DNA from: a virus
Lineage: Duplodnaviria > Heunggongvirae > Uroviricota > Caudoviricetes
Direction: 5' to 3' (one strand)
Length of the DNA: 30,947 nucleotides
IMG/VR virus record: IMGVR_UViG_2534682078_000030
Position numbers and translations under genes: made by a program. This document shows, piece by piece, positions 16,739-30,947 of the stretch. Within the stretch, counting starts at the first letter, position 1; each line of letters opens with the position of its first letter. Under the pieces are notes generated by a model. The model saw only the letters and a list, made by a program, of their open reading frames with translations. It was not told the origin of the DNA and ran no database searches.

Positions 16739-18871
16739 ATGAGTACCACAACACGAAAATTTAAAACCGTTATCACCGATACAGGTGCCAAAAAATTAGC
16801 TCAGGCAGCCGCGCCAGATGGTAAGCCTGTCCGCCTGACTCATATGGCCGTGGGCGACGGTGGCGGCGCGTTGCCCACACCAGACAGTAAGCAGACCCGT
16901 CTGGTGCATGAGGTGTGGCGACACACTGTTAATCGCGTCATCCTGGACGCAACACATCAGAACCGCATTATTGCGGAGCTGGTTATTCCTCCAGAAACGG
17001 GCGGATTCTGGATCCGGGAAATTGGTGTGTTTGATGAGCACGGCGATTTAATCGCGGTGGGCAATACTGCCGAAAGTTACAAGCCAGCCGTTGCCGAAGG
17101 GTCCGGACGTGCACAAACATTTCGCACCATTCTGACCGTATCCAGCACTGCCACTGTGGCGCTTACCGTGGATAACACCATGGTGATGGCCACAGTGGAT
17201 TACGTGGATAACAAACTGAAAGAGCATGAACAGTCACGACGTCACCCGGATGCCTCGCTGACCGCAAAAGGCTTTGTTCAACTCAGTAGCGCCACTAACA
17301 GCGATTCTGAAACGCTGGCTGCAACGCCGAAAGCGGTTAAGGTCGCGTATGATCTTGCTAACGGAAAATATACAGCGCAGGATGCCACAACAGCGCGAAA
17401 AGGCCTTGTCCAGCTTAGTAGTGCAACCAACAGTACATCTGAAACGCTGGCGGCAACTTCAAATGCAGTAAAAGCTGCCTATGACAATGCTGAAAAACGT
17501 CTGCAGAAAGCTAAGAATGGTGAGGATATCTCTGATAAAGACACCTTTACGAAAAATATCGGTGCCTGCCGTGCATATAGTGCAGAGCTGAATATTGGTG
17601 GAGATAGTGAAGCATGGACAACTGCGCAGTTGATTTTTTGGCTAGAGAGTCAGGGGGCATTTAACCATCCTTACTGGATGTGCAAAGGCTCATGGGCTTA
17701 TGCAAATAATAAGGTCATTACAGATACAGGTTGCGGAAGTATTTGTCTTGCAGGTGCTGTTGTGGAAGTTATTGGCACCCGCGGCGCAATGACCATACGC
17801 ATTACCACACCGAGTACATCCAGCGGTGAAGGCATCCCTAATGCTCAATTTACTTATATTAATCATGGTGATGCTTATGCTCCTGGCTGGCGAAGGGACT
17901 ATAACTCCAGGAATAAGCCAACAGCATCAGAGATCGGGGCGTTACCGTCAGATGGGACAGCAGTATCGTCAGTTAATCTGGCTTCAAAAGGTCGGCTGAC
18001 CGCCCTGACAGATAATATGCAGGGGGCCACAGGTCTGGAGTTATACGAGGCGTATAACAACGGATATCCAACAACGTATGGAAATATCATTCACCTGAAA
18101 GGGATGACAGCCGTTGGCGAAGGCGAATTACTCATCGGCTGGAGTGGTATAAGCGGTGCTCATGCTCCGGCATTTATTCGTTCACGACGGGATACGACCG
18201 ACGCAAACTGGTCGCCGTGGGCGCAGCTTTACACCTCGGCTCATCCTCCTGAAGAGTTTTATCCAGTCGGTGCACCGATTCCGTGGCCATCAGATACCGT
18301 TCCGTCTGGTTATGCCCTGATACAGGGGCAGACTTTTGACAAATCTGCATACCCGAAACTTGCAGTCGCTTATCCGTCAGGCGTTATTCCTGATATGCGT
18401 GGCTGGACTATCAAGGGCAAACCTGCCAGTGGTCGTGCCGTATTGTCTCAGGAACAGGACGGCATTAAATCGCACACCCACAGCGCCAGCGCATCCAGTA
18501 CTGATTTGGGGACGAAAACCACATCGTCGTTTGATTACGGTACTAAAACGACCAGTTCATTTGATTACGGCACAAAAACCACAAATAGCGCAGGAGCTCA
18601 TTCACACAATATACCTGTTGGTCACACTGGCGCGGGGAATGGTGTATCAGCCGGTTATAACGCTGCGTTAGGTACAGGTACCACGTCGAGCGCAGGAGGG
18701 CATGCTCACAATGTATATATCGGTGCCCATAACCACACTATCGGCATTGGTGCTCATGCCCATTCTGTCATTATTGGTCCCCACGGACACACCATCACCG
18801 TTAATGCTACGGGGAACGCAGAAAACACCGTAAAAAACATCGCATTTAACTATATTGTGAGGCTTGCATAA
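16739..18871 (+). CDS. H: Tail fibre protein (P2 gpH family) with divergent His-rich C-terminal receptor-binding region
   Basis: N-terminal 250 aa align with P2 gpH ([15 protein letters not shown]...[10 protein letters not shown]...[17 protein letters not shown]...). C-terminus has tandem [10 protein letters not shown] repeats and HxH motifs. Confidence 0.9.
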
Positions 18872-24621: not shown

Positions 24622-24836
24622 CAGGCACCTCCCAGCACCGCAAATGCGGGTTCAAAGTATTCATCAGTAAACGTCTGGTAAAGCTCCATGTCTTCCAGTG
24701 GCGGAACGGGCGTATATTTGTAGCGAATACGCACACGCCCCTGACGTAAATCCGTGGTGCTGTTATCCACCACGTCATACCAGCACTCCGCGCCAATCAG
24801 TTTCCCGGCAGTAACCAGTGAATCCAGTTTTGCCCT

Positions 24837-24839
24837 GAT
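24837..24839. repeat. Target-site duplication GAT, left copy
   Basis: Triplet immediately 5' of the IS terminus TGAACCGCC; identical to 26150-26152. Confidence 0.8.
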
Positions 24840-24893
24840 TGAACCGCCCCGGAAATCCTGGAGACTAAACTCCCTGAGAAAGAGGTAAACAGG

Positions 24894-25220
24894 ATGACTA
24901 AAAATACTCGTTTTTCCCCCGAAGTCCGTCAGCGGGCGATTCGTATGGTTCTGGAAAGTCAGGATGAATATGACTCACAGTGGGCGGCAATTTGTTCCAT
25001 TGCCCCAAAGATTGGCTGTACGCCGGAGACTCTGCGTGTCTGGGTTCGCCAGCATGAGCGGGATACCGGGGGCGGTGATGGTGGGCTCACCAGCGCTGAA
25101 CGTCAGCGTCTGAAAGAGCTGGAACGTGAAAATCGTGAACTGCGCCGCAGTAACGATATCCTTCGCCAGTCTTCCGCTTATTTTGCGAAGGCGGAGTTCG
25201 ACCGCCTCTGGAAAAAATGA
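24894..25220 (+). CDS. IS3-family transposase OrfA (helix-turn-helix, leucine zipper)
   Basis: 108 aa, [41 protein letters not shown]..., which I recognise as IS629/IS1203 OrfA. Confidence 0.9.
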
Positions 25221-26107
25221 TGCCACTGCTGGATAAGCTGCGTGAGCAGTACGGGGTCGGACCGGTATGCAGCGAACTGCATATTGCCCCGTCAACGTAT
25301 TACCATTGTCAGCAACAGCGACATCATCCGGATAAACGCAGTGCCCGTGCGCAGCACGACGACTGGCTGAAGAGAGAGATACAGCGCGTATACGATGAAA
25401 ATCATCAGGTGTACGGTGTGCGTAAAGTCTGGCGTCAGTTGTTACGGGAAGGAATCAGGGTGGCCAGATGTACAGTGGCACGTCTCATGGCGGTTATGGG
25501 ACTTGCCGGTGTTCTCCGGGGTAAAAAGGTCCGTACGACCATCAGCCGGAAAGCCGTTGCCGCAGGCGACCGCGTAAACCGTCAGTTCGTGGCAGAACGA
25601 CCTGACCAGCTGTGGGTGGCTGATTTTACTTACGTCAGCACATGGCAGGGCTTCGTCTATGTGGCGTTTATCATTGATGTGTTTGCCGGATACATCGTGG
25701 GGTGGCGGGTCTCATCGTCTATGGAAACGACATTCGTGCTGGATGCGCTGGAGCAGGCGTTGTGGGCCCGTCGTCCGTCTGGCACCATCCATCACAGCGA
25801 TAAAGGCTCTCAGTATGTGTCACTGGCCTATACGGAGCGACTAAAAGAAGCCGGATTACTGGCATCAACAGGGAGTACAGGCGACTCGTATGACAACGCG
25901 ATGGCTGAGAGCATCAATGGTCTTTACAAAGCGGAGGTAATACACCGTAAGAGCTGGAAAAACCGTGCAGAAGTGGAACTGGCCACACTAACGTGGGTGG
26001 ACTGGTATAACAATCGACGATTGCTGGGAAGGCTGGGCCATACTCCTCCGGCAGAAGCAGAAAAAGCTTATTATGCTTCCATCGGAAACGATGATCTGGC
26101 AGCCTGA
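25217..26107 (+). CDS. IS3-family transposase OrfB (DDE catalytic domain)
   Basis: 296 aa in the -1 frame relative to orfA, normally expressed as an OrfAB fusion by frameshifting at the A run. Confidence 0.9.
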
Positions 26108-26149
26108 GTTCACAGATAAAACACTCTCCAGGAAACCCGGGGCGGTTCA

Positions 26150-26152
26150 GAT
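26150..26152. repeat. Target-site duplication GAT, right copy
   Basis: Triplet immediately 3' of the IS terminus ...GGGCGGTTCA. Confidence 0.8.
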
Positions 26153-27275
26153 GGCACTGATAACATCCTTCACGTTCGCAGGCGTCAGTGGACTGTCGAT
26201 GGTTTCAAACTGCGCTTCCGCAATTGAATCAGCAAGCACCTGTGCGGTTCGGGTATACACCTCAAAGATGTAGGCGTTCGTTTCCGGTGTGCGGTTGCCC
26301 CAGAAGCGGAACCCGTTGCGACGAATAATGGTCGTGATTTCTTTGTTGTTGAGGCTGTTGGCATCGCTGTCTTCGGCCTGCAACGACCAGAACACATGCC
26401 TCGACATCCCCAGCACATTTTTAACCGGAACGTTGGACAGTGATTTGTGCCAGCCCTGCTCATGGTCAATGTACGCACGAAGGCCGCACGCATAGGCAGG
26501 CGCGGGGAACGTTTCGTTTTTGCCACTTTTCGGGTTGTAGGCGATGAAGTCCGGCCATAAGAGCATCACCTCACGTTCGTTGAATTTCTGGCGGTAGGTA
26601 ATCGCCTCAGCCATCGTGTTACAGCCGTGACATGAGGCATACACAAACGCGCGCAGTTTACCCGCAATCACGCACAGGGATTTTGTTACCGCCTCCGTGT
26701 CCAGCTCCGGCGCGGCCAGAATACGCGGACGGTATCCGATGCTTTCATCCTGCTCTGCAACAAGCAGCGCATACATCCCCGTATAGCTGCCGTCAGATTC
26801 AGAACCACCGATAACCAGTTGATCCTGCGTTTTTCCGTCTTCTTCTTTATGTTCAGCCACGCGAACGACGATCACCTTTGTGCTCACCTGGTCTGCGATG
26901 GCCTTAAGCGCACGATAAAGCGTCCCCGTTGTTCCGCATTTTCCCAGCACGTCATTGACGCGGGTCAGCAGTGTGGGCTTGTTCAGCGGGAACAGCTCCG
27001 CGTCCGCATCATCCGCCGTTGCCACGATACCGATAACACTGGAATCAACATCATTAATCGCTGTTACCAGGTCGGTACTTTCCGTAACACGGGCACCATG
27101 AAAACGAGTTTCACTCATAGCTTCAGCCCCTTGTATCCGTTAAATGATTCGGCAACAATCATCACCCACCACGCGCGTAATCTCACCCCTGCGCCGTTCT
27201 CCCGCCCCGGCGACAACAAAAAGCAGTAACCCCCTCCGCACGCACATGCGACCATGCCGCACAGGGAGGGAGCAG

Positions 27276-28384
27276 ATGACCGACACCACCATGCAATTGC
27301 TCAGTCAGGGCACAGACCCCGTGAAAATGCCGGATTTTGATATTCTCGCGGAGGGTAAAACGCTGTCAGGCGTGGCAGAGCGCCTGATGAGCCTGTCACT
27401 GACCGACAACCGGGGATTTGAGGCGGACCAGCTCACCATCACGCTGGATGATGCGGATGGTCAGTTGCAGCTACCGCCACGGGGCGCGCGCCTGACGGTT
27501 CTCATTGGCTGGAAAGGAGAACCGCTGACAGAAAAAGGCACTTACATTGTTGATGAAATCGCTCACGAAGGACCGCCGGACAGGCTGACTGTTTCAGCCA
27601 GAAGCGCAGATTTTCGGGATGAATTTAACGTTAAACGTGAGGTGTCCTGGCATGATGTGACCGTTGAGCGTGTGGTATCCGCCATCGCTCATCGGTATGG
27701 TCTGAAACCGCAAATCAGCGAAATGCTGATGGATATCGAAATCGACCACGCCGACCAGACCGAAGAAAGCGACATGTCCTTCCTTACGCGCATGGCGGAA
27801 ATGCTGGGCGCAATCACCACGGTAAAAAGAGGTAATCTGTTATTCATCATGCCCGGCGGTGGCGTGAACGCACAGGGCCAGCCGTTGCCCTCGTTCGCCA
27901 TCACACGCAGCAGCGGCGATCGCCATCAGTTCCGCATTGCTGACCGCGAAGCGTATACGGGGGTACGCGCTTACTGGCTTGATCTTAATTACGGGAAAAA
28001 GAAAAAGTCAGCGTGAAACGCCGCAAACCGTCAAAACCAAAAAAGGAGAAAAGCAGCAGCCGGGAAGGCGACTATATGGAAGGTGCGGAAGGCAACGTGT
28101 TTGTGTTACGCAAAACTTATCAGAACGAGCAGGCAGCAAGACGTGCAGCGGCGGCAAAGTGGCAGCAGCTACAACGCGGAGCCGCATCATTCTCCATCAC
28201 ACTGGCGCATGGACGTGCAGAACTCTACCCCGAAATGCATGGCACGGTAACAGGATTTAAAAGCGAGATTGATAATCAGGACTGGATTATTGCAAAAGCC
28301 GAGCACACCATTGATAACAGCGGCTTTACCACGCAGCTTGAGCTTGAGGCAAAAATCCCGGAATGGATAGCAGAAACAGAGTGA
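27276..28384 (+). pseudogene. D: Tail protein D (P2 gpD family), split by a -1 frameshift in GGGAAAAAGAAAAAG (27993-28007)
   Basis: N part (to 28016) has SLSLTDNRGFEADQLTITLDDADGQL and SARSADFR; C part (from 28013) has REGDYMEGAEGNVF and GFTTQLELE; both are collinear with P2 gpD. ATG at 27276 is preceded by GGGAGGGA. Could equally be a homopolymer sequencing error. Confidence 0.6.
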
Positions 28385-28609: not shown

Positions 28610-30112
28610 ATGAACAAAAAGCTGTATTTATTCCCAGACTCAAACATTTTTCTACAATGCAAGGACTTGACGCAGGTAAATTTTTCCGAGATTACTGCTT
28701 GTGATGAAGTATGTATCATTATTACAAGGCCCATTCAGCAAGAGATTGACCGCCAGAAAGGGCAAGGTAATTCCCGCCTATCCAAAAAAGCAAGGAAGGC
28801 TGCTAGCCTATTTAATCAAGTAGTTGATTCAACTGACATGACTCTTGTTATTCGTGAACGCTCGCCGCGAGTTTTTCTTACCATGGATCTAAGCCTGAAA
28901 CCATGTGAACAGTTATCTGAACAATTGGATTATCAGGAGGCCGACGATCGTTTTGTTGGTATTGCGGCAGGGTATTGCGCTGACGATCCAGATTCGGAGG
29001 TGGCAATCATTACCAATGATAGCGGTCCACGTTTTTCAGCAATAAAACATAATATAATCTGCTATAAAGTGCCTTCTTCATGGTTGCTTCCTGCTGAGCC
29101 AGATGAAAAGGATAAACAAATTAAATTGCTGGAAGCTAAGCTGAAGCAATTCACTCAGTCTATGCCCGATTTCAGCATTAAAGTAGCCGATGACGAGCAA
29201 TTAAATATTGTACTTCCTTATTATACAGCTTTATCTGAATATGAAGTTGATAATTTGCTTTGTCAACTAACGGATGCATTCCCATTGGTTACAAACTTTG
29301 ACAATGAACAAACTACCCCACAATCACTAGAAAAAATCATCAAGTCATTTAGTCAACAGGAGTATTTCCCTGTATCAGCAGATGATATTTCTCTTTATAA
29401 AGAAAAACATTATCCACTTTGGAAAAAGCAGTGTGAAGAAATACTGAAAAACTGTCATACTCATATTAATCCGAAGGCAATAAAATACCCGCTGTCGTTT
29501 TTATTACAAAACACAGGTTATACTATCGCTGAACGTGCTGTGGTAACATTTACAGCAAAAGGAGATTTTCGTCTGTGTGGATTTAATTGGGAGATAATGG
29601 AAGAGCTGACTGAAAGCAAAAGGATTGACCTACCTTCAGCCCCTACCGCCCCCAAAGGAAAATGGCGTAGTGTATGTGGCGTAACAGAAAGAATGCCTTA
29701 CGCTGGGGGAGCTTTGGAAACACCGCTATCCAGTATAATTTCAAAAGAAATTGGTCCTTTGTTATCTCTTACTCCAACAGAAAGGGATAAAAACGATTTT
29801 TATTATAAAGAAAAGAGAAATGAGCCAGTTCAAGTTGTATCGCTGGAATGCGAAGAGTGGCGTCATCAAGTCAAAGAAGAAATATTCCCGTTGTTCGTAT
29901 ATACAGCCAACAAACCAAAGAAAGTGAATGGTGCAATTGAGGTGAGAGTTGATGCAAATAACCTTACCAATCCGGTCATTAAAACATTTAAATTAAAAAT
30001 AACTATAGAAGAACATAGTGCATTTTCAACCATAACAGAAATGGTGCAGACATACATTCAAGAGCAGAAGAAAAGACAGAAAAGTTCTATTAGCGCACAA
30101 ATCAAAACATGA
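28610..30112 (+). CDS. 500-aa protein with N-terminal PIN-like nuclease domain and uncharacterised C-terminal region; candidate phage-defence effector
   Basis: Long ORF with SD GAGG 9 nt upstream; AT-rich codon usage unlike the flanking phage genes. N-terminus LYLFPDSNIFLQ...IIITRPIQQEIDRQ...KKARKAASLF...VAIITNDSGP has PIN-like spacing of acidic residues. No Walker A or HEPN motif seen. Confidence 0.6.
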   Translation: MNKKLYLFPDSNIFLQCKDLTQVNFSEITACDEVCIIITRPIQQEIDRQKGQGNSRLSKKARKAASLFNQVVDSTDMTLVIRERSPRVFLTMDLSLKPCEQLSEQLDYQEADDRFVGIAAGYCADDPDSEVAIITNDSGPRFSAIKHNIICYKVPSSWLLPAEPDEKDKQIKLLEAKLKQFTQSMPDFSIKVADDEQLNIVLPYYTALSEYEVDNLLCQLTDAFPLVTNFDNEQTTPQSLEKIIKSFSQQEYFPVSADDISLYKEKHYPLWKKQCEEILKNCHTHINPKAIKYPLSFLLQNTGYTIAERAVVTFTAKGDFRLCGFNWEIMEELTESKRIDLPSAPTAPKGKWRSVCGVTERMPYAGGALETPLSSIISKEIGPLLSLTPTERDKNDFYYKEKRNEPVQVVSLECEEWRHQVKEEIFPLFVYTANKPKKVNGAIEVRVDANNLTNPVIKTFKLKITIEEHSAFSTITEMVQTYIQEQKKRQKSSISAQIKT

Positions 30113-30355: not shown

Positions 30356-30616
30356 ATGTTCCGTTGTCCGCTTTGTGGCGCATCTGCCCGTATCCGCACC
30401 AGTCGTCCGGAAAATGATTCAAACACCGTGCGGCAAAAGTATTACCAGTGTAACAATCTGGAATGCGGCGTATGCTTCTCAACACTGGAAGCTTTCCATA
30501 AATTCACATCAAAACACGCCTCCGGCGTTCACTCTTCAGAAGATATCCCGTGGCATGATCTGCCAGCTTCACACAGGGGAAACAATCAGATGAGCTTGCC
30601 TTTACCTCAGAATTAA
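30356..30616 (+). CDS. ogr: Late gene transcriptional activator, Ogr/Delta zinc-finger family
   Basis: MFRCPLCGASARIRTSR...YYQCNNLECGVCF matches the C-x2-C...C-x4-C pattern and N-terminus of P2 Ogr (MFHCPLCQHAAHARTSR...YHQCQNVNCSATF); SD GGGAGG upstream. Confidence 0.85.
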   Translation: MFRCPLCGASARIRTSRPENDSNTVRQKYYQCNNLECGVCFSTLEAFHKFTSKHASGVHSSEDIPWHDLPASHRGNNQMSLPLPQN

Positions 30617-30676
30617 CAGGCAGAATTGCCGGAGTAACAAAAAAGCGATAGATTACGCGCGGGTGCCTTTCGGCTG

Positions 30677-30889
30677 ATGGTCGGAGGGAATACCCGAAGG
30701 CCAGATGTGGAAAGGCCCCGGAAAACATCTCTGTTTAACCGAGGCCCTAACCGCATTACCTTGACAAGTGAAAGGTTAGCGCCTCTCCGGAAAAGGAGCA
30801 AGTGCTATGTCGCAAAAATCGCTTACGACCATCACGTTCTGCGTGACGGCAATCCTCATCATCTGGATGTTGCACGGTTCGCTGTGTGA
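30677..30889 (+). CDS. Possible mok-like overlapping reading frame of the hok locus
   Basis: 70-aa ORF overlapping the hok-like gene in another frame, as mok does in hok/sok loci. No independent support. Confidence 0.3.
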   Translation: MVGGNTRRPDVERPRKTSLFNRGPNRITLTSERLAPLRKRSKCYVAKIAYDHHVLRDGNPHHLDVARFAV

Positions 30890-30947
30890 AATACGGATGA
30901 GCTTCTGGGGAGCGGAGTTTGCGGCGTTCTTACAGTGTAAGCAGTAA
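30807..30947 (+). CDS. Hok/Gef-family type I toxin (small membrane peptide)
   Basis: 46 aa MSQKSLTTITFCVTAILIIWMLHGSLCEIRMSFWGAEFAAFLQCKQ: one transmembrane segment followed by SLCEIR and EFAAF, the Hok/PndA family signature. SD AAGGAG 8 nt before the ATG. The stop codon is the last triplet of the window. Confidence 0.7.
   Translation: MSQKSLTTITFCVTAILIIWMLHGSLCEIRMSFWGAEFAAFLQCKQ

Follow-up and report, generated by a model that had tools for sequence, protein, structure and literature searches.

The stretch of viral DNA studied here, IMG/VR record IMGVR_UViG_2534682078_000030, is 30,947 nucleotides (nt) long and is called the window over its whole length. It ends with a small toxin gene of the hok type, located directly downstream of ogr, the P2 late-gene activator gene, at the right end of a P2-like prophage. 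The hok open reading frame (ORF) comprises the last 141 nt, so that the window closes with its TAA stop codon (Table 1). An earlier note on this DNA had described the product as a 46-amino-acid (aa) peptide with the Hok signature, preceded by a strong Shine-Dalgarno (SD) sequence and encoded next to ogr, and the analysis bore this out. The peptide contains the SLCEIR and EFAAF motifs and a hydrophobic stretch at residues ~5-23 (maximum 15-aa Kyte-Doolittle mean of 2.4, residues 8-22), the sequence AAGGAG is found 8 nt 5' of the ATG, and the upstream gene matches Pfam Ogr_Delta. The proposed membership in the Hok family was also confirmed by profile searches, as the peptide reached 29.0 bits with Pfam HOK_GEF (PF01848; gathering cut-off 22, E-value 8.1e-7, residues 9-44) and matched PHROG 251 ('MokW-like host killing') with an E-value of 1e-22. 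The 'MokW-like' label of this PHROG is a misnomer, the protein being Hok-like and not Mok.

Among 25 distinct coding sequences, the hok frame had a pN/pS ratio of 0.19, compared with 1.1-1.3 for the two other frames, indicating that selection acts on the Hok peptide and not on the overlapping frame. When the window Hok was aligned with HokA-E and the Hok of plasmid R1, residues C12, T14, L26, E28, and E37 were invariant. HokB needs Y-to-C editing by TadA, while the cysteines of HokA are hard-coded; as both cysteines of the window Hok (C27 and C44) are hard-coded like those of HokA, TadA editing should be dispensable. Judged by its sequence, the 46-aa peptide is thus a genuine Hok/Gef-family type I toxin. 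The gene is already known, being annotated in RefSeq and present in a recent Hok catalogue: the peptide is 100% identical to WP_000078923.1 ('Hok/Gef family protein') of enterohemorrhagic Escherichia coli (EHEC) O111/O26, which occurs on at least 1000 contigs. In the survey of Escalera-Maurer et al. (bioRxiv 10.1101/2025.08.07.668861), the window Hok type is placed in the 60%-identity cluster 72, and the cluster members 72_1621, which differs from the window Hok only by T8A, and 72_1589 were among the homologues cloned and tested. Toxicity was found for 42 of the 45 tested homologues, and the three non-toxic ones were named and are all other sequences, so both cluster-72 members count as reported toxic on overexpression. 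The survey dealt with the coding sequence only and expressly set aside Mok, Sok, and the structure of the mRNA.

To place the gene in context, 88 related loci were collected from genome and IMG/VR collections by a search with a narrow Hok alignment. An Ogr homologue is located on the same strand ~193 nt upstream of hok in 78 of them, and the remaining ten occupy other contexts, for example downstream of lom in Shiga toxin (Stx) phages such as VT2-Sakai and 933W, in which it lacks an annotation. Many EHEC O111 and O26 chromosomes match the last 648 nt of the window with 100% identity, and in O111:H- strain 11128 ihfA-pheT-pheS follows ~300 bp past the hok gene. Window positions 999-24839 are ~97% identical to P88-like phages (Xuanwuvirus, Peduoviridae). 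The hok gene is located inside the genome of phage P88, i.e., in the packaged genome, and the same cassette is carried by viable phages such as P88, PhiR44_2, Chuche, and 500465-2. About half of the related viral contigs (IMG/VR, L015-L094) end at the hok stop, 3 nt past the last hok codon, and the cut of the window at this point is probably an artifact of provirus-boundary calling.

Table 1. Features at the right end of the window, sorted by position; the fbi element is given in the coordinates of the O111 cassette L001.
Feature	Position	Strand	Remarks
ogr (P2 late-gene activator)	30356..30616	+	86 aa; Pfam Ogr_Delta 52.3 bits; RefSeq: ogr/Delta-like zinc finger protein
Predicted hok promoter	30626..30654	+	-35 TTGCCG 30626-30631, 17-nt spacer, -10 TAGATT 30649-30654; assigned by eye and position
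tac element, hok mRNA 5' end	30661..30675	+	GGGUGCCUUUCGGCU; pairs with fbi in the minimum-energy fold
'mok-like' ORF	30677..30889	+	70 codons; overlaps hok; in-frame GTG 30707
Candidate non-canonical leader-ORF start	30696..30710	+	GAAGG-N4-AUGUGG; ATG 30705, GTG 30707
Predicted Sok-like antisense RNA	30705..30765	-	~60 nt; GUCAAGGUAAUGCGGUUAGGGCCUCGGUUAAACAGAGAUGUUUUCCGGGGCCUUUCCACAU; 5' end from alignment to the 5' ends of K-12 sokB and sokC
ucb-like box	30710..30719	+	GAAAGGCCCC; alternative tac partner; columns invariant or nearly so
Sok-target hairpin	30714..30746	+	GGCCCCGG ... CCGAGGCC; includes GAGG 30741-30744; aligns with the hokB, hokC, and R1 hairpin
Hypervariable segment	30751..30762	+	Target of the predicted Sok 5' tail; top column entropy of the whole mRNA alignment
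Predicted sok promoter	30773..30801	-	-35 TTGCTC 30801-30796, 17-nt spacer, -10 TAACCT 30778-30773; positional
hok translation-initiation hairpin	30777..30808	+	Anti-SD CCUCUCC 30782-30788 pairs with SD AAGGAG 30793-30798; in minimum-energy and consensus folds
hok toxin gene	30807..30947	+	46 aa, HokA-like; ATG to TAA; translation MSQKSLTTITFCVTAILIIWMLHGSLCEIRMSFWGAEFAAFLQCKQ
fbi element	L001 6697-6714, outside the window	+	344 nt downstream of tac

The window ends before the 3' untranslated region (UTR) of hok, so the downstream sequence was read from the identical O111 cassette of another strain, L001. The identity was verified for the last 648 nt and for the parts free of insertion sequences (IS); the last 6.6 kb differ by the extra IS of the window. 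The earlier note had regarded the locus as cut by the window edge. This is right for the 3' UTR with its fbi element and terminator, which were recovered from L001, while the first 287 bp of the cassette transcript are inside the window, the predicted Sok gene included. Transcription of hok is predicted to start at G30661. The -10 box of the predicted promoter is retained, as TAGATT, TAGAAT, TAAATT, or TAGAGT, in relatives with unrelated sequence farther upstream. The 5' end of the mRNA, GGGUGCCUU (30661-30669), is perfectly complementary to AAGGCACCC, located 57-65 nt 3' of the hok stop in L001, and the tac/fbi core is a 7-bp helix of GGGUGCC (30661-30667) and GGCACCC (L001 6707-6713). An intrinsic terminator is present 3' of the fbi element in L001.

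The folding of the 411-nt full transcript agreed with the long-range pairing of the tac/fbi type that the earlier note had suggested testing, as the predicted structure had a free energy of -176.7 kcal/mol (z -7.4) with the 5' and 3' ends paired. In an alignment of 32 distinct hok mRNAs of the window type (A3), the core tac/fbi helix was paired in 32/32 variants, with no changes other than three different C-to-U substitutions, each of which leaves a G-U pair. The consensus structure was 98.2% paired over the 32 variants, and 17 pairs were changed on both sides compared with 5.1 ± 1.6 in shuffles (0/500) and 3-6 in slid-partner controls. In the relatives, the conserved sequence extends from the -10 box and tac to a few bases past fbi, whatever flanks it, and this delimits a self-contained cassette. 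Within it, the hok SD is paired in a local hairpin, the stem of which extends to the A of the AUG; the two helices of this hairpin (9 and 10) were 98-99% paired, with GC/GU/AU covariation at one pair. When the 3' end was removed in silico, tac was predicted to pair with the ucb-like box instead of fbi and the hok SD was left open. The Rfam family RF01794 ('sok') matched positions 30661-30820 of the plus strand over the full model length with an E-value of 1.5e-9.

To our knowledge, Sok is antisense to the leader and encoded upstream of hok in every characterized hok locus. The earlier note had expected the antisense RNA at or beyond the window edge, where it could not be assessed, and this expectation failed: the predicted Sok gene is located inside the window, upstream of hok on the minus strand. 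It was placed by aligning the leader with K-12 hokB and hokC, for which sokB and sokC are annotated, and with R1, its ends being predicted. The predicted RNA consists of a long GGCCUCGG...CCGGGGCC hairpin that follows a single-stranded 5' tail and is followed by a U-rich tail, with a folding energy of -26.9 kcal/mol (z -3.6). The equivalents of its promoter by position are TTGCGC-17-TATCCT in R1 and TTGCCG-17-TAAGAT in hokB, and AGGTTA, the complement of the sok -10 hexamer, is invariant in 32/32 variants while its neighbors are variable. The helix of the Sok-target hairpin, which falls inside the RF01794 match, is likewise retained in 32/32 variants, with one double change. The segment targeted by the predicted 5' tail, on the other hand, shows at least five sequence types among loci that are otherwise 95-100% identical, and the loop of the target hairpin (30725-30740) is also among the most variable parts of the cassette, with two loop alleles. 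Two to four hok copies of this type occur within single genomes. The variability of tail and loop would fit a diversification of antitoxin specificity between copies residing in the same genome.

The RF01794 model, described as the 'sok antitoxin', matched the hok-sense strand in the window as well as in L003, L005, L006, and L007, over the region between the 5' end of the mRNA and the start codon of hok. In K-12, the strand of the match was opposite to the annotated sokB and sokC. The strand calls of this model should therefore be inverted when Sok is sought.

Taken together, the locus is very probably a type I toxin-antitoxin (TA) cassette of the hok/sok type of ~410 bp, a moron that a P88-like (Xuanwuvirus, P2-family) prophage bears between ogr and its attachment site. 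A weak promoter would give rise to a hok mRNA starting at about G30661, whose 5' tac would pair with the fold-back element ~57 nt past the hok stop. By homology with R1, this closed full-length mRNA, with the hok SD buried in the local hairpin, would be stable and untranslated. Slow trimming from the 3' end would remove the fold-back element, allow the 5' end to re-pair with the ucb-like box, and refold the leader so that hok becomes translatable, again as in R1. A short-lived Sok of ~60 nt, transcribed from about 30765 to 30705, would pair with the refolded leader, block expression, and trigger cleavage by RNase III. Should Sok synthesis stop upon loss of the element, shut-off of transcription, or prophage induction, Hok would insert into the inner membrane and the membrane potential would collapse. 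The identity of the parts of the cassette appears well supported, while 3' trimming, refolding, RNase III cleavage, and the instability of Sok are inferred from R1. Possible roles of the cassette are the stabilization of the prophage end, a help in lysis, or the exclusion of other phages. Its intactness in a defective prophage is at least consistent with a selfish, self-stabilizing module.

The cassette shares with R1 hok/mok/sok (parB) and K-12 hokA-E a small toxin that crosses the membrane once and carries the SLCE motif and a C-terminal cysteine, an mRNA of ~400 nt closed by tac/fbi with an alternative tac/ucb pairing and the SD in a local hairpin, the GGCCCCG...CGAGGCC target hairpin, and, as predicted for the window, an antisense gene whose promoter overlaps the hok SD region. 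It differs in that the R1 and K-12 Hok peptides have 49-52 aa, compared with 46 in the window, and are only 22-43% identical to it. The window leader is shorter (146 nt) and scored 48.4 bits with RF01794, whereas the hok-sense leaders of hokC, hokB, R1, and hokA used for calibration reached 118, 110, 87, and 70 bits, respectively, and the Stx-phage relative 36 bits. By this comparison, the window leader is homologous to the hok leaders but among the most divergent scored, below every named locus. In addition, the canonical mok start of R1, hokB, and hokC is lacking, and the window cassette is borne by a prophage instead of a plasmid or the core chromosome. The closest characterized paralogue is HokA (K-12 yiaZ) with 43% identity and, as in the window, hard-coded cysteines. 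The HokA equivalog NF007290 was also the best NCBIfam match of the window Hok, but with 34.1 bits against a cut-off of 89, so the window Hok is not a HokA orthologue. HokA was also assigned to another 60% cluster of the survey, 93 instead of 72.

A further relative is found in Stx phages. VT2-Sakai (AP000363.1, ~44.5 kb; L004 1521-1875), 933W, and others carry an unannotated cluster-72 Hok just downstream of lom, represented in the survey by 72_1589. This copy encodes 46 aa with 76% identity to the window Hok and possesses a tac/fbi pair of its own; hokW-sokW of the same prophage is a separate locus. We had considered that this 83%-identical Stx-phage locus could be the published hokW, but the primers given in PMC8621323 ruled this out, as hokW is HokD-like (MKQQKAM...). 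Being a different gene, hokW does not lend its functional data to the window cassette. For the hokW-sokW system of Sp5, both an antisense antitoxin and a role upon induction have been demonstrated (Takada et al. 2021, PMC8621323). This system is, like the window cassette, a Hok-family type I TA system on a temperate EHEC phage, but it belongs to the 51-aa HokD-like subfamily, sits at another locus, and resides on a lambdoid instead of a P2-like phage.

Several observations weigh against a functional hok/sok cassette. A scan for sigma-70 promoters with a threshold of 9/12 consensus matches found none on either strand; the predicted hok promoter matches 8/12 positions and was for this reason not reported, and the sok promoter matches 6/12. 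For the minus-strand promoter that the earlier note had suggested looking for, position points to TTGCTC-17-TAACCT, which the consensus scan did not report. The RF01794 score does not reach the gathering threshold of the family, 59 bits. No ATG, GTG, or TTG is present 5-12 nt after the GAGG at 30741-30744, where the sequence reads CCCUAACCGCAUUACC. The peptide tested in the survey was the T8A variant 72_1621, while the window peptide carries T8. The chromosomal hok loci of K-12 and E. coli C studied so far have shown no post-segregational killing. Finally, an IS disrupts the prophage, so any role tied to the phage may be moot in the strain at hand.

The main task of the same system could be directed at the phage, namely lysis and progeny release on induction or superinfection exclusion, rather than at addiction; we consider this quite possible, though only tentatively so. 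R1 hok/sok reportedly excludes T4. The genes of the hok family are four-fold enriched in prophages, and the window type has a fixed site by the late activator gene ogr in 78/88 loci, with no terminator predicted between ogr and hok. The hokW-sokW system of the Stx2 prophage Sp5 speeds lysis and doubles the release of Sp5 after mitomycin C treatment (PMC8621323), but the published HokW is, as described above, a different peptide of 51 aa outside cluster 72. Furthermore, hok is reportedly not enriched near defense systems, and PADLOC gave no match for Hok or the neighboring ORFs. A phage-directed task concerns the role only and is compatible with the hok/sok-type cassette proposed here.

It is rather doubtful that the locus is a canonical three-gene hok/mok/sok system. 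The R1 system requires that mok be translated as far as the hok SD (PMC9841398), and the alignment places the mok ATG of R1, hokB, and hokC 7-8 nt past the GAGG that closes the target hairpin. The mok-like frame described in the earlier note does exist as a 70-codon ORF, and the A of the hok start is base 2 of its codon, the same +1 relation as in R1. It lacks a canonical mok start, however, as no start codon follows the GAGG homologous to the mok SD at the appropriate distance, and the frame is broken in relatives. Its ATG at 30677 is only 16 nt from the mRNA 5' end, in the first hairpin and without an SD, a sizeable minority of the 43-46 unique relatives have stops or no start in the frame, and its pN/pS is 1.33. 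The reading that mok is simply absent was softened after leader ORFs were enumerated, as AUGUGG emerged as a semi-conserved start from which the ORF mostly extends to the SD hairpin. In ~90% of the 88 loci, an ORF from its AUG or GUG extends at least that far. Among 87 loci, the ORF from the AUGUGG site crosses the hok start in 64, ends in the SD hairpin in 16 more, and ends short of the hairpin in seven. This tally is not statistically compelling, because two of the three frames carry a start, and an open frame is expected to have one by chance in ~2/3 of cases. Moreover, frame and end point (-45 to +134) differ between near-identical relatives, five variants have no ORF and L013 has no start (5-7 variants without an ORF), and the AUGUGG site is base-paired in both predicted mRNA conformations. 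On the sequence evidence, the canonical mok start is absent in the window cassette, while the AUGUGG at 30705 is a possible, partly conserved alternative start.

A mechanism without mok can be drawn from the fold of the 3'-trimmed mRNA, in which GAGGC (30741-30745) is paired to the strand otherwise masking the hok SD, namely GCCUC (30781-30785). The bases of GAGGC and GCCUC are invariant. In such a mok-free cluster the GAGG would serve as an 'anti-anti-SD', hok would be translated directly, Sok would sequester GAGGC in addition to inducing RNase III cleavage, and the hypervariable segment would give each copy its own antitoxin specificity. As a joint proposal, this model is speculative and unlikely to hold in all its parts.

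That the locus is an inactive relic, i.e., a decaying chromosomal hok locus like most of those in K-12, without toxin or antitoxin expression, that hitch-hikes in a defective prophage, is highly improbable. In favor of it are the IS in the tail sheath gene, the split gene D, the missing canonical mok start, the promoters weak by consensus, and the reported non-activatable state of the studied chromosomal hok loci. Against it stand an intact hok ORF under purifying selection, the elements tac, fbi, Sok-target hairpin, SD hairpin, and -10 boxes, which are intact and conserved over 32-46 variants with compensatory changes, and the occurrence of the cassette in viable phages and of a peptide type reported toxic.

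The hok/sok-type cassette is in itself an ordinary, known system, and the missing canonical mok start is its sole non-trivial residue. An abundant prophage cluster without this start represents a regulatory difference that the published surveys have deliberately left aside. If hok translation were indeed independent of mok, the R1-based paradigm would be modestly revised for one widespread Hok lineage in EHEC prophages. The results also show that a first-pass reader is able to recognize a type I toxin from raw sequence. Where provirus calls end with the last ORF, which is the case for the window and many IMG/VR contigs, the hok 3' UTR with the fold-back element and terminator is systematically lost, and the analysis of such loci at the RNA level therefore needs the flanking host record.

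The prophage in the window is defective, with an IS in the tail sheath gene and a split gene D. Two 100% identical copies of an IS3-family element are present in inverted orientation 24 kb apart (23-1006 and 24834-26149), with IS3-family rve and helix-turn-helix transposase ORFs at 65-946 and 25217-26107. The tail sheath gene is disrupted by the second copy, which leaves the truncated ORF 26147-27118; the prophage of O111 11128, identical in other respects, does not have this insertion. The window begins within the first copy, so that the left-hand portion of the prophage with int, C, and cox is either missing or displaced. The homologue of P2 gene D (Pfam Phage_GPD) is divided into ORFs 27144-28016 and 28013-28384, which cover profile positions 48-207 and 208-304, respectively; two overlapping ORFs sharing one profile indicate a frameshift.

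Between gene D and ogr, a 500-aa ORF (28610-30112, plus strand) encodes an N-terminal PIN_4 domain (33.9 bits) followed by an uncharacterized C-terminal part of ~350 aa. It had no PADLOC or NCBIfam match, and phage P88 has nothing at this position. The ORF is a candidate moron or defense gene in a P2-type hotspot. Farther upstream, two direct repeats of 94 nt (17266-17359 and 17398-17491), 73% identical and 132 nt apart, are located inside a 710-aa ORF (16739-18871), which is presumably a tail fiber gene. Finally, cassette copies with 74-96% identity were found in assemblies titled Planococcaceae (L008), Vagococcus (L010), and Xanthomonas pisi (L012), and these are most likely contaminating E. 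coli or Salmonella contigs.

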